Notes: a model not told the origin generated them from the sequence alone. DNA of 64,000 nucleotides from Escherichia coli (GCF_001677475.2 NZ_CP015229.1), one strand, 5' to 3'. Positions 47,807 through 62,518 are shown, counted from the first letter of the stretch. Numbers and translations: made by a program.

Positions 47807-48036
47807 ATGACGGAATATTATCTCAATGAGACGGTTTGCAAATACAGAGCCAGTTTCTCCGGGGTAACGAGCAGGTGTACCAGTGTCAGGTGGCATTTGT
47901 ATTGCCGGGTGAGCGGGTCATGATGGCCTTCACCTACGCCCGAACCACACCGCTGACCCCGGCAGATATGACGCGCTGGGCTGAAATTAAAAAGAATCTG
48001 CGCTTCAGGATGCGGCAGGAAGCCGGGACGAATTAA
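47807..48036 (+). pseudogene. Eag-family (DUF1795) T6SS effector chaperone, internally deleted and frameshifted
   Basis: The ATG at 47807 encodes MTEYYLNE, a typical Eag N-terminus. It runs into another frame and stops after 38 codons. The C-terminal roughly 64 codons (QVYQCQVAFVLPGERVMMAFTYARTTPL...) are in a different frame (47836-48036). The total span of 230 bp compares with about 450 bp expected. Confidence 0.7.
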
Positions 48037-48054: not shown

Positions 48055-51000
48055 ATGGAAGAGGCATTCTGGGCGGCAAGGCAGGGTGATGCCCTGCTGC
48101 ATACGTCGTTTATGGCAGATGTGCTGGGGGCAGTTGTAGAGGTTGCCGCCACAGCCCTGGTGGATGTTCTGGTTGTCGGAACCATGGCGGCGCTGGGCGG
48201 AGTTGAAGTGGCAACGCTGGGCTGCTCAACCATTTTAGCGATCGGTATAGCAACAGCGGTATTTATGTCGTATCAGGGCTGGAATGACCGAATCAGTAGG
48301 GAAAGTGAGCAACTGGCGAACTGGCTTTTCCCGCCTCAGATTGAAGGTTACATCCTCACCGGCTCTGGCGACACATGGATCAACAGCAAACCTGCCGCGC
48401 GGGCCGCGGCGACTGCGGCATCGCGGCAGGACATTGAGGCGCAGGAGGCGCAGGCGAAGGCGGAACAGGAAGAAGCGCAGCGTCAGGAGGATGCCAGAAC
48501 GTTCCTGGATGTGGCCGGGGAATATCTGGAAATGGCGGGGGCCATAGCCCTGGCGGTTAACCCGGTGACAGGGCCTGTGCTGATGTCCCGGGCGCTGCAC
48601 GACCAGCTCAGTACGGAAGAAGGGCGTTCTGAAATGGTGGATGGCGTGACACATTTTGTGTCGGAACTATGGCAGCCCACCGTGGCCAGTGCGGCCCCGG
48701 GCTCCACCCCGACCCCTGACGATAAAATCGACTGCCATAAACATCCCTCCTCACTGACGCAGTTTCTCGCACAAAAAAAAGCCGCCTTTCTGGATGACCC
48801 CCTGGGAACGGCCCTTAACCTGCTGAGTCCGGGCGGTATGCTGGAAACCGCCTTTCAGGGAGTGAATGCGGTTATTGGCAGCATCAGTAATCTGTTCAAA
48901 GGCGATGATGAACCGCCCGCAGCGGAATATATCGCGGAAGGCGCGCGGGATGTGCGTATCAACAGCCAGCCGGCGGCACGCAGCGGGGCACGCTGCACCT
49001 GCGAGGCCAGGGTGGTGAATGAGCCGGGGAACGGGGCGTTTGTGTCACCGGATGTCCGCATTGGCGGTCCGTTACTGGTGGTCAGGGATATCAGAAGCGG
49101 CAGGTCGCAGATAACCCTGGTGGCAACCGTGGCGCTGATGTTTCTTCGCCCGGGCAAAATGCTTTCTAAAATCGCCTGTTTTGCTGCCAGTGTCGGGATG
49201 GGGGTGATGACGCAGAAGGCCATCAGTGCCCTTCCGCATCCGGTCAATGCCGCCACCGGAGCCAAATATCTGGCCGATGACGATGATTTTGACTTCAGTC
49301 TGCCGGGCCACTTTCCGCTGGACTGGCAGCGCGTGTACAGCAGTCGTGACGACCGCACGGAAGGGATGTTCGGGCAGGGCTGGAGTGTAATGTATGAAGT
49401 CAGCCTCGAGCGCACGCCGGGTACTGCTGACGAAAACTGTATGACCTTTGTGTCGGGCATGGGACGACGTCTGGATATGGAGGCCGTGCTGCCGGGGAGC
49501 GGGTTTTACAGCCCCGGCGAAGGACTGGCAGTACGGCGGGGTGAGCAGGGGCACTGGCTTATCAGCAGCGATGACGGGCAGTTTTTTCTGTTTGAGGCCG
49601 ACCCGCGTCACCCGCAGCGCCAGCGGCTGAAAATGCTGGGCGACCGCAACAGCAACTGTCTGAATCTGTACTACGACGAGCTGGGGCGCATCACGCAAAT
49701 CAGCGGTGAACAGCAGCGTCCGTGCATCCGTCTGCATTATGAACTGGCGGCGCATCCCCGGCGGGTGACACAGATTTATCAGCATTTCCCTGAGATGGCT
49801 CCTTTACTGCTGCGTCGTTACCGCTATGACGAGGCCGGCGACCTGAACGGCGTGTACGACAGCACGGGGCACCTGCTGCGCGAGTTTGCTTACGACGAAA
49901 ACCACTGCATGACCCTGCACCGCCAGCCGGGCGGCGAAGGGTATTATTACCAGTGGGGCTGGTATGAAGGCCCGGATGACGCAGCGTGGCGGGTGACGGG
50001 GCACCACACGGACAGCGGTGAACAGTACCGGCTGGCGTGGAGCCTGGCGGCACGCAGGCTGTGCGTGACGGACGGGCTGGGGCGCACGCGTTATCATCAG
50101 TGGGACGCGCAAAATCAGGTGACGGCGTACCAGGACGAAGCCGGGCAGGTGACGACGTTCCGCTGGAGCGACGAAGAACGGCTGTTACTGGGAATGACCG
50201 ATGCGCAGGGCGGCAAATGGCGCTATGTGTATGACCGGCAGGGGCATATCACGGAGACGCACGACCCGCTGGGGCGGGTGGCACAGACACAGTGGCACCC
50301 GGTGTGGCACCAGCCGGAAACGGAGGTGGACGCGGCGGGGAACAGCTGGTGCTGTGAGTACGATGAACGCGGCAATCTTCTTGCGGTGACCGACCCGCTG
50401 CAGCAGAACACCCGGTATCAGTATGACCGCCACGGCCAGGTGGTGCAGATAACGGATGCGCGCGGGGGGAATAAATACCTTCAGTGGAACGAAGACGGGC
50501 AGCTCATGCGGCACACGGACTGTTCCGGCTCGCAGACGGCCTGGTTCTACGACGAACGCACGCGGCTGATACGGATGACAGACGCGCAGAGCCACAGCAC
50601 GCGCTACGGGTATGACGACAGCGGCCACCTGACGGAGGTGATACTGGCGGACGGCCGCACGGTGAATTACCAGTCGGACGCGGCGGGCAGGCTGGTGAAG
50701 TACACCAGCCCGATGGGGAGGATAACGCGCTGGCAGCGGGACGGGCAGGGCCGGGTGCGCAGCCGGACAGACGCGACGGGGCGCAGGACGGCGTTCGGGT
50801 ACGATGCCTACGGGCGTCTGGTCACGCTCACGAACGAGAACGGAGAAAGCTACCGGTTCCGCCATGACGTGCTGGACCGTCTGGCGGAGCAGATAAATCC
50901 GGACGGCTGCCGCCAGACGTACCGCTACAACGCGCTGAACGCGGTCACGGAAGTGGTGTTCACCGGGGACCGGGGCGGTGAAATCCGCCACCGGCTGGCA

Positions 51001-52737
51001 CGTGATGCGGCGGGCCGGCTCACGGCAAAGGAGACAGCCGATGGCCATACGGAATACGTCCATGATGCGGCAGACCAGCTACTGGAAATCCGCCGCCGAC
51101 GGTCGGATGCCGGGGAAACAGACGCACCGGAGATTATCCGTTTCAGTTACGACAGACTGGGGCGGATGCTGACCGAGGAGACGGCGCAGGGCGTCCTGAC
51201 CCATCAGTACGATGAACTCAGCAACCGGACAGCCACCACCTTTCCGGATGGCAGAACGCAGCGTCATCTGTACTACGGCAGCGGCCATCTCCAGCAGATA
51301 AATCTGGACCGGGAGGTCATCAGCGAGTTCACACGTGACGCCCTGCACCGGGAAGTGCTCAGAAGTCAGGGGCGACTGAGCACGCGGCAGCTTTATGACC
51401 CCGCCGGGCGGCTGAAGCGCAGGGAGACATACAGCGGGATGCGCGGGGTGGTACCGGAGACGTTCACGGACCGGCAGTACAGCTACAGCGGCGAGGATGA
51501 ATTGCTGAAGACGCGGCACAGCCGGCGGGGGGAAACGGATTACTTCTACGACCCCACGGGGCGCATCACGGCGTGCCGCTCGGAGGATGAGAGGTATCTG
51601 GCGAGCTGGCAGTACGACGCGGCGGGAAACCTGCTGGGGAGGCGCGCGGGGGAAAGGGCCACGGCAGAAAACAGCGTGGTGCCGTTCAACCGGCTGATGT
51701 CTTACCGTGGTGTGCACTACCGTTATGACGAATTTGGCCGGACGGTGGAAAAGGAGGGCCGGAGCGGCACGCAGAGTTACCGTTATGATGCGGAACACCG
51801 GATGGTGGAAGTGACGACAGCGCGGGGGACATACCGGTATGTGTACGATGCGCTGGGGAGGCGGACGGAAAAACAGCACATCAGCCCTGACGGTAAACCG
51901 TACAACCGGACGACATTTTTATGGGACGGAATGCGGCTGGCGCAGGAGAGCAGGCCGGAGGGAATAAGCAGCCTGTATATCTACAGCGACCCGGGGAGTT
52001 ATGAACCGCTGGCGCGGGTGGATAAGGCGGGCAAAGAGGGCCCGAACCGGATACTGTATTTTCACACGGATGTGAACGGTGCGCCGGAAGAGATGACGGA
52101 CAGTGACGGGAAAATCGTGTGGGAGACGGGGTATCAGGTCTGGGGTAACACGATACAGGAGAAGGACCACGGCGGGGTGGAGCAGAACCTGCGCTACCAG
52201 GGACAGTACCTCGACAGGGAAACGGGGCTGCATTACAATCTGCACAGGTACTATGATCCGGATGTCGGGCGGTTCATGGTAACGGACCCGATAGGGCTGG
52301 CGGGGGGACTGAATCTTTACCAATACTCACCGAATCCAATAAGTTGGATCGACCCGCTGGGATTAACAGGGGAGTGGGTTAATCCCAAAGATATTAATTT
52401 TTCTCAAAGAACAATATCACCTCATGATTATGCCGATATTATGCGTAATGGTGGTTGGGATTGGGACAGGTCTCCATTAAGAGTAATTGATATTGATGGG
52501 CAATTAGTTTCTTATGATAATAGGCGATTAGACGCAGCTCTAGAGGCCGGATTAGATAAGGTTAAAGTCATTAGAGTTGACCCTAATGCTCCTCATCCTG
52601 ACTCATCTACTGGAAAAACATGGTTACAAAAATTCCGAGAGAGATTTAGAGATCGAAGAAATATAAAGGCCGGTGGAATAGTACCAGATAAAGGATTAAA
52701 TTCTCGACCGGAAAGAACATCAAGAGGTTGCAAATGA
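48055..52737 (+). CDS. Full-length prePAAR/PAAR-Rhs (YD-repeat) polymorphic toxin with C-terminal ParB/Srx-like toxin tip
   Basis: 1560 aa. The AARQGDALLH prePAAR motif lies at 48073-48102. Two hydrophobic TM regions flank PAAR-like segments. A long GC-rich YD-repeat core follows. The core-end motif PNPISWIDPLGL has DPLGL at 52351-52365. An AT-rich 123-aa tip follows. Confidence 0.93.
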   Translation: MEEAFWAARQGDALLHTSFMADVLGAVVEVAATALVDVLVVGTMAALGGVEVATLGCSTILAIGIATAVFMSYQGWNDRISRESEQLANWLFPPQIEGYILTGSGDTWINSKPAARAAATAASRQDIEAQEAQAKAEQEEAQRQEDARTFLDVAGEYLEMAGAIALAVNPVTGPVLMSRALHDQLSTEEGRSEMVDGVTHFVSELWQPTVASAAPGSTPTPDDKIDCHKHPSSLTQFLAQKKAAFLDDPLGTALNLLSPGGMLETAFQGVNAVIGSISNLFKGDDEPPAAEYIAEGARDVRINSQPAARSGARCTCEARVVNEPGNGAFVSPDVRIGGPLLVVRDIRSGRSQITLVATVALMFLRPGKMLSKIACFAASVGMGVMTQKAISALPHPVNAATGAKYLADDDDFDFSLPGHFPLDWQRVYSSRDDRTEGMFGQGWSVMYEVSLERTPGTADENCMTFVSGMGRRLDMEAVLPGSGFYSPGEGLAVRRGEQGHWLISSDDGQFFLFEADPRHPQRQRLKMLGDRNSNCLNLYYDELGRITQISGEQQRPCIRLHYELAAHPRRVTQIYQHFPEMAPLLLRRYRYDEAGDLNGVYDSTGHLLREFAYDENHCMTLHRQPGGEGYYYQWGWYEGPDDAAWRVTGHHTDSGEQYRLAWSLAARRLCVTDGLGRTRYHQWDAQNQVTAYQDEAGQVTTFRWSDEERLLLGMTDAQGGKWRYVYDRQGHITETHDPLGRVAQTQWHPVWHQPETEVDAAGNSWCCEYDERGNLLAVTDPLQQNTRYQYDRHGQVVQITDARGGNKYLQWNEDGQLMRHTDCSGSQTAWFYDERTRLIRMTDAQSHSTRYGYDDSGHLTEVILADGRTVNYQSDAAGRLVKYTSPMGRITRWQRDGQGRVRSRTDATGRRTAFGYDAYGRLVTLTNENGESYRFRHDVLDRLAEQINPDGCRQTYRYNALNAVTEVVFTGDRGGEIRHRLARDAAGRLTAKETADGHTEYVHDAADQLLEIRRRRSDAGETDAPEIIRFSYDRLGRMLTEETAQGVLTHQYDELSNRTATTFPDGRTQRHLYYGSGHLQQINLDREVISEFTRDALHREVLRSQGRLSTRQLYDPAGRLKRRETYSGMRGVVPETFTDRQYSYSGEDELLKTRHSRRGETDYFYDPTGRITACRSEDERYLASWQYDAAGNLLGRRAGERATAENSVVPFNRLMSYRGVHYRYDEFGRTVEKEGRSGTQSYRYDAEHRMVEVTTARGTYRYVYDALGRRTEKQHISPDGKPYNRTTFLWDGMRLAQESRPEGISSLYIYSDPGSYEPLARVDKAGKEGPNRILYFHTDVNGAPEEMTDSDGKIVWETGYQVWGNTIQEKDHGGVEQNLRYQGQYLDRETGLHYNLHRYYDPDVGRFMVTDPIGLAGGLNLYQYSPNPISWIDPLGLTGEWVNPKDINFSQRTISPHDYADIMRNGGWDWDRSPLRVIDIDGQLVSYDNRRLDAALEAGLDKVKVIRVDPNAPHPDSSTGKTWLQKFRERFRDRRNIKAGGIVPDKGLNSRPERTSRGCK
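50912..52299 (+). repeat. 1388-bp direct repeat, copy A (rhs core 3' part)
   Basis: Aligns without indels to 60705-62092 at a constant offset of 9793 nt. Only four amino-acid differences separate the translated copies. Confidence 0.9.
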
Positions 52738-53168
52738 AAAATATTATTCAGTTATGGGAAGATGGTTTATTACCGATAAAAGATGCTATTTACTTTTCTA
52801 ACGGTGAATCTTTCCTTTGTAAAATAACATCTTACCCTACTCCTTGTATTGAGAAAAATGGTGAGTTTGATTTCTCTGCCTTTTATGAAAAAAATAAAGA
52901 TGAAGTTACTGATATTGATAAGTCTAGAGAAGTTAAATTAGCGAATAATTGCTATTGTTGCATTGGAGAAGGTAGTTATGGTTCTGAAGGATTTATCGCA
53001 TATCTCGATGAAAATAAAAACTTAGTTTGGGTTCTTTATTCCGAAGAATCTAATCCATTTATTAATATAACTGAATATACATCTGATATTATTATAGTAG
53101 AATCAAGTTCTAATATTAGACTAAGAATAAATATAAACAATCCAGTGGATTTAGAATTGGCATTTTAA
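52734..53168 (+). CDS. Cognate Rhs immunity protein (RhsI), family unknown
   Basis: 144 aa. Its ATG overlaps the rhs stop (ATGA at 52734-52737) and an SD aagagg lies upstream. AT-rich like the toxin tip. Confidence 0.75.
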   Translation: MKNIIQLWEDGLLPIKDAIYFSNGESFLCKITSYPTPCIEKNGEFDFSAFYEKNKDEVTDIDKSREVKLANNCYCCIGEGSYGSEGFIAYLDENKNLVWVLYSEESNPFINITEYTSDIIIVESSSNIRLRININNPVDLELAF

Positions 53169-53170
53169 AT

Positions 53171-53208
53171 AAAAAGCCGGGTGAAATTAAATCTTCCCGG
53201 CTTTTTTA
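53171..53208. terminator. Cassette hairpin H1 (bidirectional terminator shared by rhsI and the symE-like gene)
   Basis: aaaaaGCCGGGtgaaattaaatcttCCCGGCtttttt. Confidence 0.75.
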
Positions 53209-53212
53209 TTAT

Positions 53213-53542
53213 TTAACTCTCGTTCAGCACACTAAACATCCCGTTCCGCATCCCCTTAACCACCTGTTTAACCTGATAAAGTTCTTCCCGCAGCTCCTGC
53301 ACCTCGTCACTGTCAGCGATGATGGTCAGGTACCCCTCCGAAATCTTCACCGTGACACCCCGCCCGGTATCAAATCCCGCCTCAGCCAGCCAGTCGCCCT
53401 TGAGGTGCAGGCTGGGATGTTGTGAATAATACCGGGCTATACCTGTTGTGCGGTCCTGGTGGCGGGTTCTGACATAGCCGACTTTATAGCGGCGCTGGGT
53501 TTTGGAAATGGTGACTTCTGGCGTAATATCGTGTTCAGCCAT
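53213..53542 (-). CDS. SymE-family (AbrB/SpoVT-fold, type I toxin-like) protein, intact copy
   Basis: 109 aa. The segment HLKGDWLAEAGFDTGRGVTVKISEGYLTII aligns with remembered K-12 SymE [32 protein letters not shown]. An SD aggag lies 7 nt before the ATG. Confidence 0.75.
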   Translation of the reverse strand: MAEHDITPEVTISKTQRRYKVGYVRTRHQDRTTGIARYYSQHPSLHLKGDWLAEAGFDTGRGVTVKISEGYLTIIADSDEVQELREELYQVKQVVKGMRNGMFSVLNES

Positions 53543-53760: not shown

Positions 53761-54861
53761 AACATCGCGGAAGAAGAAGGTGTGCGCCAGGCGGCCTACG
53801 CGCTCAAGCTGTTGCAGTCGGACGGGGAACTGACCATCGCCAGTACGGGCAAGGATGACGCCAGCGGTAACCTGGTCACCAAACAGTATACGGTGAAAGG
53901 CCCGGTGATGCTGATGCTGACCACCACCGCCATCGATGTTGACGAGGAGTTACTCAACCGCTGTCTGGTGCTGACGGTGAACGAATCGCGGGAACAGACG
54001 GAAGCTATCCACGCGGCGCAGCGTTACGCGCAGACGCTGGAAGGACTGCTGGCGGCTAACGAAAAAAGTTACATCACGCAGCTTCACCAGAACGCGCAGC
54101 GGCTGCTGCGCCCGCTCAACGTGGTGAACCCGTTCGCCTCGCAGCTCACGTTCATGAGCGACAAAACCCGCACCCGGCGCGACCACATGAAATACCTGAC
54201 GCTGATCCAGGCGATCGCCCTGCTGCACCAGTACCAGCGGGAGATCAAGCGCGTGGAGCATCGCGGGCAGGTGGTGGAGTACATCGAGGTCACGCGGGAG
54301 GACATCGCCCTGGCGAACCGCCTGGCACATGAAATACTCGGGCGCACCCTGGATGAAATGCCGCCGCAGACGCGCAAACTGTTAACCCTGATCCAGCAAT
54401 GGGTGAGCGACAGCGGTCAGGCGCGTGAGGCGATGCGGTTCACCCGTAAACAACTGCGTGACGCGGTACAGTGGGGCGACACGCAGCTCAAGATCCACCT
54501 GGCGCGGCTGGTCGAAATGGAATATCTGCTGGTCCACCGTCTCGGGCTGACGTTCTGCTATGAACTGCTGTTCGACGGGGACGGCAGCGCAGACACCGCG
54601 CACCTGTGCGGGCTGATCGACGTACCGGAACCACCGTATGACGTCGCCCGGTCGGGGGAAACGGTGAAGCAGCTGGCCTCTGGTCGGGCAGTGGTCGGCG
54701 GTCAGTCGGGTAAGGAAAAAACCGCCTCAGACCAGACACCACGAGGCTTACAGGCCGGAGCGGTCGGGGCAGAGGAAAAAGCCCTGTTCCGGCAGAACGC
54801 AAAAAAACCGTCCCGCAATCATACTGCGGCCCGTCCGGGCCGGAGCAACACGGAAGCATAA
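53761..54861 (+). pseudogene. 5'-truncated gene of a GC-rich mobile element (large conserved protein, function not assignable here)
   Basis: The ORF reading ..IAEEEGVRQAAYALKLLQSDGELTIASTGKD... has no plausible native start. Composition changes sharply at about 53760. It is followed by a tyrosine recombinase gene. Confidence 0.55.
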
Positions 54862-54895
54862 GTACGACTTCATCCGGTCGGGGCAACGGCTGCAA

Positions 54896-54939
54896 TAGTC
54901 GGCCCCTGGTCGGCAGTCAGTCGGCGGGTAGTCGGGGTG
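54896..54939. repeat. Four tandem 11-bp iteron-like repeats containing GTCGG
   Basis: tagtcggcccc / tggtcggcagt / cagtcggcggg / tagtcggggtg. A fifth GTCGG lies at 54877-54881. The repeats lie between the truncated gene and the recombinase gene. Confidence 0.7.
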
Positions 54940-55065
54940 CGTAAAACCCCCGCAGGCCGCGCCCGGCAAGGTTCAGGCCATGAAGCGGTCGGCCTGCCTG
55001 AAAATCACTGTTCCATCCTCTGTTCTTCTCTCTGTCGTACCGTAATCTCAATCAGGACAATCATC

Positions 55066-56095
55066 ATGACAAAACCCATCCCTCCGGGGCCGGAGGAACT
55101 TTACCTCAGCCGCCAGAACCTGACGCAGCGCCAGTATGTGGTGGTGTGGCTGGAATACCTGACGGCACAGAACTACAGCGCGATCAGCGTAAGCGACTAT
55201 CGCGAACGGGTGTTACCGTTCGTGACATGGTGTGAGGAGCGCGGGCTGATGTACGCGCCGCAGGTCAGCCAGCCGCAGCTTGAAAGCTATCAGCGCCACC
55301 TTCACGGCTACCGTAAGGCGGACGGCCATCCGCTGGCGGTCAGCGGTCAGGTGGGCCGGATAAGCGCGATAAAAATCTTTTACCGCTGGCTGCTGAAGCG
55401 GCATGTGATCCTGTACAACCCCGCCGATCTGCTGGAACTGCCAAAGCCGGACAAACGGCTTCCGGCGCAGGTGTTCAGTAAGGGCGAGACGCGGCAGGTG
55501 TTACAGAGCCTTGATATCAACACGCCCGTTGGCCTGCGCAACCGGACAATCCTTGAGGTGCTGTGGAGTACCGGGATCAGGCGGATGGAGCTGGCCAGCC
55601 TGATGTTGTGGGATGTTGACACCGGGCGCGGTGTGGTTAACGTGCGGCAGGGTAAGGGGCGTAAGGATCGGGTGGTTCCGGTGGGCCATGTGGCGCTGGG
55701 ATGGCTGGCAAGACGTGCGACCACAGATGACGCGCCAGCGCGACAGTGGTCATCTGTTCGTGACGAAATACGGCAGCGGGATGAAACGCAACACGCTGAC
55801 GGCGATGGCAGGCACCGCGATCCGGGAAACGGCACGGATCGACAAACCGGGCGCGTGCCATATCTTCCGGCACTCGATGGCGACGCAGATGCTGGACAAT
55901 GGCGCAGACACGCGGCATATCCAGGCGATCCTCGGCCATGAGAAGCTGGAGACGACGCAGATCTACACGAAGGTGGCCATAAAGCCGTTGCAGAAGGTTC
56001 ATGCGCGGACGCACCCGGCAGAGAAGCGGCGAAGGGAAAAGCGCGTGCAGCAGCCGGACGAGGCCACCGTATCGCCGGACAGCCTGAAAAGTTAG
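55066..56095 (+). pseudogene. Tyrosine recombinase (XerC/D-like integrase), frameshifted
   Basis: MTKPIPPG...TGIRRMELASL...[12 protein letters not shown] is in one frame. After about 55710 the homology continues in the +1 frame ([36 protein letters not shown]). The catalytic Arg is therefore separated from the HxxR and Tyr residues. Confidence 0.8.
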
Positions 56096-58376: not shown

Positions 58377-59667
58377 CAGGGAAAGATCACGTAATGCTGC
58401 TTTTTTGTACTAAACAATTCGCATTTTATGTTTAAAAATTGAGATATTCCTCATTACATAAAGCTGTTTTTTATTGCTTATACATGATCAAATACTCCTT
58501 ACATAATTAAGGAGAACAAAATGGAACTTAAAAAATTGATGGAACATATTTCTATTATCCCCGATTACAGACAAGCCTGGAAAGTGGAACATAAATTATC
58601 GGATATTCTACTGTTGACTATTTGTGCCGTTATTTCGGGTGCAGAAGGCTGGGAAGATATAGAGGATTTTGGGGAAACACATCTCGATTTTTTGAAGCAA
58701 TATGGTGATTTTGATAATGGTATTCCTGTTCACGATACCATTGCCAGAGTTGTATCCTGTATCAGTCCTGCAAAATTTCACGAGTGCTTTATTAACTGGA
58801 TGCGTGACTGCCATTCTTCAGATGATAAAGACGTCATCGCAATTGATGGAAAAACGCTCCGGCATTCTTATGACAAGAGTCGCCGCAGGGGAGCGATTCA
58901 TGTCATTAGTGCGTTCTCAACAATGCACAGTCTGGTCATCGGACAGATCAGGACGGATGAGAAATCAAATGAAATTACAGCTATCCCTGAACTTCTTAAC
59001 ATGCTGGATATTAAAGGAAAAATCATCACAACTGATGCGATGGGTTGCCAGAAAGATATTGCAGAGAAGATACAAAAACAGGGAGGTGATTATTTATTCG
59101 CTGTAAAAGGAAACCAGGGGCGGCTAAATAAAGCCTTTGAGGAAAAATTCCCACTGAAAGAATTAAATAATCCAGAGCATGACAGTTACGCAATTAGTGA
59201 AAAGAGTCACGGCAGAGAAGAAATCCGTCTTCACATTGTTTGCGATGTCCCTGATGAACTTATTGATTTCACGTTTGAATGGAAAGGACTGAAGAAATTA
59301 TGCGTGGCAGTCTCCTTTCGGTCAATAATAGCAGAACAAAAGAAAGAGCCAGAAATGACGGTCAGATATTATATCAGTTCTGCTGATTTAACCGCAGAGA
59401 AGTTCGCCACAGCAATCCGAAACCACTGGCACGTGGAGAATAAGCTGCACTGGCGTCTGGACGTGGTAATGAATGAAGACGACTGCAAAATAAGAAGAGG
59501 AAACGCCGCAGAATTATTTTCAGGGATACGGCACATCGCTATTAATATTTTAACGAATGATAAGGTATTCAAGGCAGGGTTAAGACGTAAGATGCGAAAA
59601 GCAGCCATGGACAGAAACTATCTCGCGTCAGTCCTTGCGGGGAGCGGGCTTTCGTAATCTTGCCCTG
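58377..59667 (+). mobile_element. ISAs1-family element (Rhs-associated H-repeat), 1291 bp
   Basis: Terminal IRs are CAGGGAAAGATCACGTAA and TTACGAAAGCCC..(rc CAGGGCAAGATTACGAAA). A perfect 10-bp target duplication GGGGAAATCC lies at 58367-58376 and 59668-59677. Confidence 0.9.
58521..59657 (+). CDS. ISAs1-family (H-repeat-associated) transposase
   Basis: 378 aa, starting [51 protein letters not shown]. Matches remembered YbfL/YhhI-type proteins. Confidence 0.92.
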
Positions 59668-60704: not shown

Positions 60705-62518
60705 GCCAGACGTACCGTTACAACGCGCTGAACGCGGTCACGGAAGTGGTGTTCACCGGGGACCGGGGCGGTGAAATCCGCCACCGGCTGGCACGTGATG
60801 CGGCGGGCCGGCTCACGGCAAAGGAGACAGCCGATAGCCGAACGGAATACGTCCATGATGCGGCAGACCAGCTACTGGAAATCCGCCGCCGACGGTCGGA
60901 TGCCGGGGAAATGGACGCACCGGAGATTATCCGTTTCAGTTACGACAGACTGGGGCGGATGCTGACTGAGGAGACGGCGCAGGGCGTCCTGACCCATCAG
61001 TACGATGAACTCAGCAACCGGACAGCCACCACCTTTCCGGACGGCAGAACGCAGCGTCATCTGTACTACGGCAGCGGCCATCTCCAGCAGATAAATCTGG
61101 ACCGGGAGGTCATCAGCGAGTTCACACGTGACGCCCTGCACCGGGAAGTGCTCAGAAGTCAGGGGCGACTGAGCACGCGGCAGCTTTATGACCCCGCCGG
61201 GCGGCTGAAGCGCAGGGAGACATACAGCGGGATGCGCGGGGTGGTACCGGAGACGTTCACGGACCGGCAGTACAGCTACAGCGGCGAGGATGAACTGCTG
61301 AAGACGCGGCACAGCCGGCGGGGGGAAACGGATTACTTCTACGACCCCACGGGGCGCATCACGGCGTGCCGCTCGGAGGATGAGGGGTATCTGGCGAGCT
61401 GGCAGTACGACGCGGCGGGAAACCTGCTGGGGAGGCGCGCGGGGGAAAGGGCCACGGCAGAAAACAGCGTGGTGCCGTTCAACCGGCTGATGTCTTACCG
61501 TGGTGTGCACTACCGTTATGACGAATTTGGCCGGACGGTGGAAAAGGAGGGCCGGAGCGGCACGCAGAGTTACCGTTATGATGCGGAACACCGGATGGTG
61601 GAAGTGACGACAGCGCGGGGGACATACCGGTATGTGTACGATGCGCTGGGGAGGCGGACGGAAAAACAGCACATCAGCCCTGACGGTAAAGCGTACAACC
61701 GGACGACATTTTTATGGGACGGAATGCGGCTGGCGCAGGAGAGCAGGCCGGAGGGAATAAGTAGCCTGTATATCTACAGCGACCCGGGGAGTTATGAACC
61801 GCTGGCGCGGGTGGATAAGGCGGGCAAAGAGGGCCCGAACCGGATACTGTATTTTCACACGGATGTGAACGGTGCGCCGGAAGAGATGACGGACAGTGAC
61901 GGGAAAATCGTGTGGGAGACGGGGTATCAGGTCTGGGGTAACACGATACAGGAGAAGGACCACGGCGGGGTGGAGCAGAACCTGCGCTACCAGGGACAGT
62001 ACCTCGACAGGGAAACGGGGCTGCACTACAATCTGCACAGGTACTATGATCCGGATGTCGGGCGGTTCATGGTAACGGACCCGATAGGGCTGAGAGGCGG
62101 ATTAAACTTATACCAATACGCGCCTAATCCGTTAAGCTGGATCGATCCTCTTGGATTAAGTGCCGCCTCTGATTTACCTCAATTAAAAGGAAGATCCCCA
62201 GGGGCAATAGGTTCTATTCTTACTGATAATGGATTCAATTTAGATAAACAAACAAGTACCGGGAATCAGACTTGGAGCCACGCCGATGGTTCTAAAGTTC
62301 GTGTCGATCCCTATGGAAACCAAAGTATGACTATGAAAAACGGTGATCCATTACCGAAATCAGGAGCTAACGCACATGTGCATAAATATGATCCCGGTGA
62401 GATACCGCTGAATGACAGAGGCATTCCGAGTACAAATCCAAATGAAACACATATAGGGATCAGGAATCCAAATGATTATTCTACAAAACGAGGGCGGGCC
62501 CATGGGTGCGGCGTATAA
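60705..62518 (+). CDS. Orphan Rhs fragment 3: 1.39-kb core 3' segment (direct repeat copy B, 60705-62092) plus a distinct CT toxin
   Basis: The translation is near-identical to main Rhs residues from QTYRYNALNAVTEVVFT to VTDPIGL. It then diverges: [22 protein letters not shown] followed by a 119-aa CT from 62159. The 5' side (60678-60704) is a scrambled YD fragment in another frame. The only start is an internal GTG at 60746. Confidence 0.85.

Follow-up and report, generated by a model that had tools for sequence, protein, structure and literature searches.

We report that the C-terminal tip of an Rhs protein of Escherichia coli is almost certainly, as structural modelling indicates, a minimal ParB/sulfiredoxin-fold domain. 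The Rhs gene lies in a 64,000-nt stretch of the genome (GCF_001677475.2, NZ_CP015229.1; hereafter the window), and the tip comprises the last 123 amino acids (aa) of its product (Rhs aa 1438-1560; 52366..52734, + strand, stop codon 52735-52737). The domain carries the signature of Tox-ParBL1, one of the two ParB-fold toxin families (Tox-ParB and Tox-ParBL1) predicted by Zhang et al. (2012, Biol Direct 7:18; PMC3482391), and is a further, confidently modelled member of the toxin class predicted in that year. The explanation that we favour overall, with a little better than even confidence, is an Rhs-delivered toxin of this fold that would bind nucleoside triphosphates (NTPs) in a pocket, act by phosphoryl transfer and be blocked by the immunity protein encoded directly behind it. 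Pfam and NCBIfam have no model that recognises the tip or the immunity protein, and hundreds of such cassettes are labelled 'hypothetical'.

Predicted fold and conserved motifs of the tip

The tip reads TGEWVNPKDINFSQRTISPHDYADIMRNGGWDWDRSPLRVIDIDGQLVSYDNRRLDAALEAGLDKVKVIRV... and its AlphaFold2 (AF2) model has a pLDDT of 94.8 and a pTM of 0.87. The elements of the model follow the order strand-strand-helix-strand-strand-helix-strand-helix-helix, with the motif DNRR at the start of the second helix, which fits the N-domain of ParB. The phosphate-binding arginine motif of the superfamily (GERRxRA, GCHR or DGHHR), expected at the N-terminus of the helix following strand 3, has its counterpart in the tip, where DNRR opens helix 52-60. 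The best 50 Foldseek matches of the model are all ParB, Noc, KorB, sulfiredoxin (Srx), SerK, SbnI, Atu1540 or the Pyrococcus protein 1vk1 (best E 8e-4), and the nucleotide-bound structures among the matches comprise ParB-CDP, ParB-CTPgammaS, Srx-ATP, SerK-AMP/ADP and SbnI-ADP.

This placement is further supported by profile-profile comparison. In hhalign, a 139-sequence profile of the tip matches four ParB N-domains with a probability of 92% (P 6.5e-7, 53 columns), pairing SYDNRRLDAALEAGLDKVKV of the tip with AGERRFRAAKLAGLDTVPA of ParB and setting DNRRLDAALEAGL opposite GERRFRAAKLAGL. The four ParB sequences were taken from PDB alignments and include 1vz0; the B. subtilis ParB sequence was validated against 6sdk (E 6e-93). 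The probability climbed with the depth of the tip profile, from 21% against a single ParB sequence through 65% for a shallow tip profile against the four-ParB profile to the final 92%, and at all three depths DNRRLDAA of the tip is aligned to GERRFRAA of ParB.

Two short motifs are conserved across the family. Motif I (S13-Q14-R15 in INFSQRT; 52402..52410, + strand) lies between strand 2 and helix 1, which in topology is the putative position of ParB box I (QPR), while motif II (D51-N52-R53-R54; 52516..52527, + strand) stands at the N-terminus of helix 2 and is the counterpart of ParB GERR. S13 is found in 130 of 135 sequences (Thr in the other five) and Q14 in all 135; D51 is present in 137/139, N52 in 138/139, R53 in 133/139 (with Thr in four more) and R54 in 139/139. 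Across the 139 domain sequences D51 is the only invariant acidic residue, and no His is invariant. The ParB motif GERRxRA, which is likewise arginine-rich, mediates the interaction of ParB with cytidine triphosphate (CTP) (PMC7333895). An earlier, sequence-only reading of the window had pointed to an SQR-type segment followed by D-G/N-x-x-R; the pattern proves to be conserved family-wide and is not a chance resemblance, but its second half reads D-N-R-R. The same reading had likened the tip to the ParB/sulfiredoxin fold, a likeness borne out by Foldseek (all of the best 50 matches) and by deep-profile hhalign, although plain hidden Markov model (HMM) searches find no such match and sequence similarity to sulfiredoxin is not detectable.

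The tip shares its fold and its helix-strand order with the N-domains of ParB/Spo0J, Noc and KorB, and its DNRRLxAAxxAGL segment resembles their box II, GERRxRAAxxAGL. It departs from ParB in that the Glu of GERR is replaced by Asn and QPR of box I by SQR. Furthermore, ParB/Spo0J, Noc and KorB carry helix-turn-helix (HTH) and C-terminal dimerisation domains and serve partition or regulatory roles, whereas the tip is a presumed toxin with an immunity partner. No HTH match above threshold was found in Pfam, and the tip ends about 20 residues past the fold, with no C-terminal dimerisation domain. Sulfiredoxin and the free-serine kinases SerK and SbnI differ from the tip in another respect, since Asn takes the place of the catalytic Cys in the sulfiredoxin motif FGGCHR; because Asn stands at this position, sulfiredoxin-like reductase chemistry is excluded.

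Three results weigh against assigning the tip to this fold. The curated HMM libraries (Pfam including ParBc, NCBIfam, PHROGs and PADLOC) leave the tip unmatched; hhalign of the tip profile gives no significant match to human sulfiredoxin, taken as a single sequence (P 0.15); and only the topology of the model would equate motif I with ParB box I and helix 3 with box III. Residue-level mapping of motif I and helix 3 onto boxes I and III by low-stringency hhalign was of low confidence and out of register, and was rejected. Searches of PDB sequences with phmmer and hmmsearch recovered only the shared pre-toxin DPxGL segment of other Rhs/DddA entries, with the tip itself unmatched. From this lack of any Pfam, NCBIfam, PHROGs, PADLOC or PDB sequence match, and from pairwise identities of 7-26% to ParB/Srx structures, it could be argued that the likeness to ParB is a chance motif match and that the tip has an unrelated fold; the highly confident AF2 model, and a profile-profile match that holds the functional motif in register, make such a coincidence exceedingly improbable. 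Matches to HTH_Tnp_Tc5 (E 0.15) and to an FxLD methyltransferase (E 0.023) were far below cut-offs and were dismissed.

Relationship to the Tox-ParBL1 family

Sequence searches recover 58 homologues of the tip, with E down to 1e-59; in a set of 1.84 billion proteins, 962 cluster representatives reach E<=1e-3. UniRef calls one distant member of the family (P0269, Flavobacterium davisii) a 'ParB/Sulfiredoxin domain-containing protein'. Tox-ParBL1 was defined by an N-terminal Ser/Thr that is absent in classical ParB, together with the motif [NT][RT][RT], whose last two positions are mostly Arg and which is equivalent to DGHHR (PMC3482391). Its ParB fold was found only by profile-profile comparison (93% to 1vz0), its carriers are of the RHS, HINT, FilH, WXG/LXG and MafB types, its type member is NGK_2271 of Neisseria gonorrhoeae (gi 194099761), and it was reported in eukaryotes too (PMC3482391).

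The tip family agrees with this description in several respects. The N-terminal Ser/Thr corresponds to S13, and [NT][RT][RT] to N52-R53-R54, with T in place of R53 in the divergent members, which have DNTR. The profile-profile match to ParB is of the same order (93% published versus 92% here, with a ParB profile that includes 1vz0), and the domain is likewise a C-terminal module on RHS, HINT, filamentous haemagglutinin and WXG-type carriers with a wide phyletic spread. On the other hand, neither MafB nor LXG types occurred among the carriers of the members scanned here, and the immunity proteins published for Tox-ParBL1, which are associated with the family but do not define it, belong to Imm-SUKH or Imm44 whereas those found here form a beta-propeller-like family without a Pfam entry.

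The motif separates the tip from classical Tox-ParB: it reads DNRR and not DGHHR, and the tip is for this reason placed on the ParBL1 branch. Classical Tox-ParB, grouped here with the 'ParB-like nuclease' domains of Pfam ParBc type, also has the ParB/Srx fold at the end of Rhs and haemagglutinin toxins and a motif that opens helix 2, but this motif is DGHHR there and DNRR, without His, here; ParBc does not match the tip, and the immunity families of classical Tox-ParB are Imm20, Imm27 and Imm-SuFu. These comparisons suggest that the tip probably belongs to Tox-ParBL1, as judged by the published definition of the family. The members studied here further share an extension at the C-terminus, conserved at T85, W86, F90, R93, N99, P107, G110 and P115, which may mark a distinct Tox-ParBL1 subfamily.

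Probable toxin role and the immunity protein

The domain is nearly always C-terminal, in proteins of 100-3255 aa. Its carriers include proteins with RHS_repeat (21/57), PT-HINT (3), WXG100_2 (1) and PT-TG (1), along with filamentous haemagglutinins recognised by protein names. Among further members (P0286, P0293, P0294 and P0179), some are tips of filamentous haemagglutinin (CdiA-like) proteins, and in P0179, a protein of 1122 aa, three stretches match the domain profile.

The gene behind the tip (52734..53168, + strand) encodes a 144-aa protein with an isoelectric point (pI) of 4.3, while the toxin domain has a pI of 9.7. Linkage of the two was sampled by a pattern scan with one genome per species, which gave 68 loci. 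In 68/68 of these species-level genomes an open reading frame (ORF) of the immunity family lies directly 3' of the toxin domain on the same strand, at a gap of 2-240 bp that is below 75 bp except at two loci. The loci fall in Proteobacteria, Actinomycetota, Bacillota, Bacteroidota, Acidobacteriota and Verrucomicrobiota; most are from actinomycetes, and the others include Enterobacteriaceae, Snodgrassella, Serratia, Paraburkholderia, Lysinibacillus and Bacteroidales. Tip and downstream ORF are very probably a toxin-immunity pair. Streptomyces sp. NBC_00727 (locus L035, 3378-4385) has two tandem immunity-family ORFs behind one toxin domain, which may reflect duplication of the immunity gene or an orphan immunity gene.

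No significant Pfam match was obtained for the immunity protein or for 42 homologues, so that neither Imm-SUKH nor Imm44 was recovered for them, and NCBIfam, PHROGs and PADLOC give no meaningful match for the protein either. Its structural model is of high confidence and all-beta, with about three blades that resemble a fragment of a WD40-type propeller. The family is previously undescribed, with no Pfam entry and an unusual open-propeller-like model.

An exchangeable tip-immunity cassette

The sequence-only reading had placed the end of the Rhs core at DPLGL, followed by a 123-aa tip (aa 1438-1560), and both the boundary and the sequence that it quoted agree with the motif positions and with the end of the NCBIfam Rhs_assc_core match (aa 1360-1437). 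The segment from DPIGL to DPLGL that closes the core spans aa 1411-1437 (52285..52365, + strand), with DPIGL at aa 1411 and DPLGL at aa 1433-1437; the motifs, the end of Rhs_assc_core and the end of homology to another Rhs gene all fall at its boundary. By analogy with studied Rhs proteins, DPLGL is the expected autoproteolytic release site of the tip.

The end of DPLGL is a recombination boundary as well. In BLAST, the Rhs gene of E. coli GF131 is 96% identical up to 52366, has no homology beyond that point and becomes homologous again from 53167. Because GF131 homology breaks at 52366 and restarts at 53167, the interval 52366-53168 is a recombination unit to within two bases, and this is the very interval that had been singled out from the sequence. 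The drop in composition proposed at about 52,366 is equally sharp when measured in 200-bp windows, with a GC content of 0.58-0.71 in the core, 0.42 at 52300-52499 and 0.26-0.34 across 52600-53199. Tip and immunity gene are a single, horizontally exchanged recombination cassette.

Within the cassette the two genes overlap by ATGA, as previously noted, with the immunity start codon at 52734-52736 and the toxin TGA at 52735-52737; the immunity gene ends with TAA at 53166-53168. The two ORFs are translationally coupled via this overlap, and a Shine-Dalgarno-like hexamer, AAGAGG, lies 6 nt 5' of the immunity ATG. The cassette is present in one of 5426 complete E. coli genomes, that of strain A34, and a 98%-identical tip is frequent in Rhs proteins of Salmonella enterica (a cluster of 243 member sequences). 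It is a compact example from E. coli and Salmonella, with few invariant residues and an obligate immunity partner, and is tractable in these respects.

Right behind the immunity stop lies a hairpin (53171..53206) with an A-run before it and a U-run after it, whose predicted RNA fold has an energy of -16.6 kcal/mol (z -4.4; 0/200 shuffles as stable). It looks like a bidirectional terminator between the immunity gene and the convergent symE. A simple terminator scan did not report this hairpin, the stem-loop probably lying beyond the 3-8 nt loop limit of the scan.

Possible mechanism of the toxin

We propose that the tip, encapsulated in the YD shell of Rhs, would be freed by autoproteolysis after DPLGL and would reach the cytoplasm of a neighbouring Gram-negative cell, as expected from better-studied Rhs proteins. 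There, S13/Q14/R15, D51/N52/R53/R54 and R93/N99 would form a putative pocket that corresponds by homology to the CTP-binding site of ParB and to the ATP-binding sites of sulfiredoxin and the free-serine kinases. The toxin would bind Mg-NTP in this pocket and kill via phosphoryl transfer, most likely by NTP-dependent phosphorylation of a cytoplasmic substrate that the cell cannot do without, or by its wasteful hydrolysis, with the arginines holding the phosphates and Asp51/Asn52 acting as base and metal ligand. In the producer, the acidic propeller-like immunity protein would bind the basic toxin and block the pocket, a role suggested by the linkage of the two genes.

The general part of this proposal, chemistry in an NTP pocket, is reasonably probable given the homologous motif and the nucleotide-bound structures among the structural matches. 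That the tip is a phosphotransferase or NTPase rather than a nuclease, as its fold and residue inventory suggest, is a more tentative claim, to which we give not quite even weight. It is favoured because nucleotide binding is common to the experimentally understood members of the fold, the CTP switches ParB, Noc and KorB as well as sulfiredoxin, SerK and SbnI, and because the invariant residues comprise a single Asp along with Asn, Gln, Ser and several Arg but include neither His nor an acidic cluster, a composition closer to that of a phosphotransfer site than to that of a metal nuclease.

Two considerations tell in the other direction. ParB CTPases turn over no more than about 3-36 CTP per hour (PMC7333895), and killing by NTP hydrolysis would need a much faster enzyme. 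In addition, Zhang et al. favoured a nuclease role for ParB-type toxin domains (PMC3482391), in which case the fold and the toxin-immunity logic would be the same and the tip would be a metal-dependent nuclease acting on DNA or RNA of the target. These authors argue that the phosphotransfer of the ParB superfamily could extend to phosphodiester hydrolysis, and nucleases dominate polymorphic toxin repertoires (PMC3482391). A 2025 survey labels ParB-motif Rhs tips DNases, by annotation only, and one of the structural matches, 5k5d, was deposited as 'ParB domain protein nuclease'. The pairing of a basic toxin with a very acidic immunity protein is also typical of nucleic-acid-directed toxins.

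The residue inventory of the tip speaks against a nuclease, which is nevertheless a serious, if somewhat less probable, rival. With D51 as the sole invariant acidic residue and no invariant His among the 139 sequences, the set is thin for a metal nuclease; the case for a nuclease in classical Tox-ParB drew on the histidines of DGHHR, which the tip does not have; and the domain has 123 aa without a separate DNA-binding domain. The 'nuclease' label of ParB itself arose from erroneous assumptions, according to the 2012 study (PMC3482391), and no biochemical report of such an activity was found in the literature searched. The statement in the sequence-only reading that ParB-like toxins have been predicted but are poorly characterised is in keeping with this literature, in which the 2012 prediction and annotation-level mentions are all that we found; for polymorphic toxins of the ParB fold, whether Tox-ParB or Tox-ParBL1, it yielded neither biochemistry nor a structure.

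The closest Foldseek matches are CTP-switch proteins (ParB-CDP, Noc and KorB), and ParB hydrolysis is so slow that its function is switching and not turnover. This raises the alternative of a non-catalytic, nucleotide-gated binder that, like ParB, Noc and KorB, would clamp or sequester DNA or an essential protein stoichiometrically. A type VI secretion system (T6SS) firing event probably delivers few toxin molecules, and stoichiometric action would be weak in that case. Moreover, ParB-type clamps depend on HTH and dimerisation domains, both of which the tip lacks, and the polar residues S13, Q14, D51 and N52, which are of the kind used in catalysis, are invariant. We regard a pure binder as quite improbable.

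In its most specific form, phosphoryl transfer in an NTP pocket would make the tip the first example of an interbacterial toxin that kills through NTP chemistry of the ParB/Srx type, as a kinase-like or NTP-consuming enzyme of about 100 residues with a D-N-R-R pocket and a three-blade, propeller-like immunity family; this extension we put forward with confidence rather below even. If true, it would add a fourth functional class to the ParB fold, beside CTP switches, sulfiredoxin and serine kinases, and would assign a biochemical activity to Tox-ParBL1 domains, including those reported in eukaryotes. The cassette thus lets the question be put whether toxins of the ParB fold are nucleases, which is the assumption made in annotation pipelines, or whether they follow the rest of the superfamily and are NTPases or phosphotransferases that depend on NTP.

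The Rhs carrier and its possible delivery

The Rhs ORF is intact (48055..52737, + strand; 1560 aa) and has the domain layout of a class I prePAAR T6SS effector, in the order prePAAR, transmembrane region, PAAR, DUF6531, YD-repeat shell, Rhs-associated core and toxin tip. Pfam matches on the ORF are RHS_repeat (2.6e-79, with 15 RHS repeats), DUF6531 (2.7e-19), RHS (9.7e-15) and PAAR_motif (3.9e-8). The prePAAR motif AARQGDALLH (aa 7-16; 48073..48102, + strand) conforms to the consensus AARxxDxxxH (definition in PMC7773334) and is followed by a hydrophobic stretch at about aa 18-75, as seen from sequence and hydropathy, with the PAAR motif further on. The protein thus combines all of the features of a class I prePAAR Rhs, namely AARxxDxxxH, an N-terminal transmembrane region, PAAR and YD repeats. 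Effectors of this class are defined by AARxxDxxxH and need a cognate Eag chaperone for export (PMC7773334).

Upstream of Rhs lies the remnant of such a chaperone gene (DcrB-like, DUF1795-type; 47807..48036, + strand), identified by translation and by a BLAST comparison with E. coli A34, where the gene is intact and encodes 150 aa. The remnant keeps the start codon (47807) and 10 codons and then has a 223-bp internal deletion that causes a frameshift and a stop at 47921-47923, while its 3' part is still DcrB-like (Pfam DcrB 1.8e-5 on 47836-48033). A first MAFFT alignment had suggested that the 5' two-thirds of eag were replaced by unrelated DNA; this was an artefact, and BLAST shows the 223-bp deletion. 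The same eag allele occurs in 143/5426 complete E. coli genomes and is labelled a pseudogene in RefSeq, so that many E. coli carry the Rhs locus without its cognate chaperone. In E. coli A34 (NZ_CP028741.1, 5267-10369) the situation is the reverse of that in the window, with an intact Eag gene and a frameshifted Rhs.

The locus resembles RhsA-EagR1 of P. protegens and Rhs1-SciW of S. Typhimurium in its prePAAR motif AARxxDxxxH, single N-terminal transmembrane region, PAAR and YD shell, as well as in the DPxGL boundary, the DcrB/DUF1795-like gene upstream and the immunity gene downstream. It differs from both systems in the family of the tip and in the inactivation of the Eag gene by the 223-bp deletion. 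Because class I prePAAR effectors need Eag and eag is frameshifted here, export from this locus is doubtful, and delivery from it remains uncertain unless another Eag substitutes, which speaks against the delivery step of the favoured explanation.

It is accordingly conceivable that the cassette is not a working weapon in this genome, and that, with Rhs not exported, the locus is kept as a stored cassette, as an addiction-like toxin-immunity pair or simply for its immunity gene. Besides the eag pseudogene and the dependence of export on Eag, this is favoured by the lack of any vgrG, hcp or T6SS core gene seen adjoining Rhs, by the frameshifted Rhs in A34, the sole complete E. coli genome with the same tip, and by the reported action of Rhs elements as toxin-antitoxin-like modules in Salmonella (PMC7043789). 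Against it, the 1560-aa ORF is intact and its prePAAR, PAAR and core motifs are kept, and the lost chaperone might be replaced by a second Eag paralogue encoded outside the window. We consider the loss of weapon function a serious but less probable alternative; it concerns deployment only and leaves the identity of the tip unaffected.

Neighbouring genes in the window

The surroundings of the Rhs gene are those of the E. coli kdpFABC-ybfA region, followed by the Rhs island. A SymE-family type I toxin gene (53213-53542, - strand; Pfam 6.2e-20) is convergent to the immunity gene and shares the hairpin with it, and in the other E. coli strains listed, the RefSeq annotation likewise has SymE at this position behind the Rhs cassettes. 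Beyond symE, in place of ybgA, lies a decayed integrative element (53782-56095), which elements in about 230 E. coli genomes match at about 91% identity. Its parts are a 359-aa ORF that elsewhere carries the annotation of a DNA primase or CHC2 zinc-finger fragment, and a gene for a XerC-like tyrosine recombinase that is apparently split over two frames (54937-55941 and 55613-56095). Further on, a 378-aa DDE transposase ORF (58521-59657) equals in size the ISAs1-family transposase annotated at the locus in E. coli 200164, and an orphan Rhs fragment of 590 aa (60746-62518) has RHS repeats and the core signature with a different C-terminal tip.

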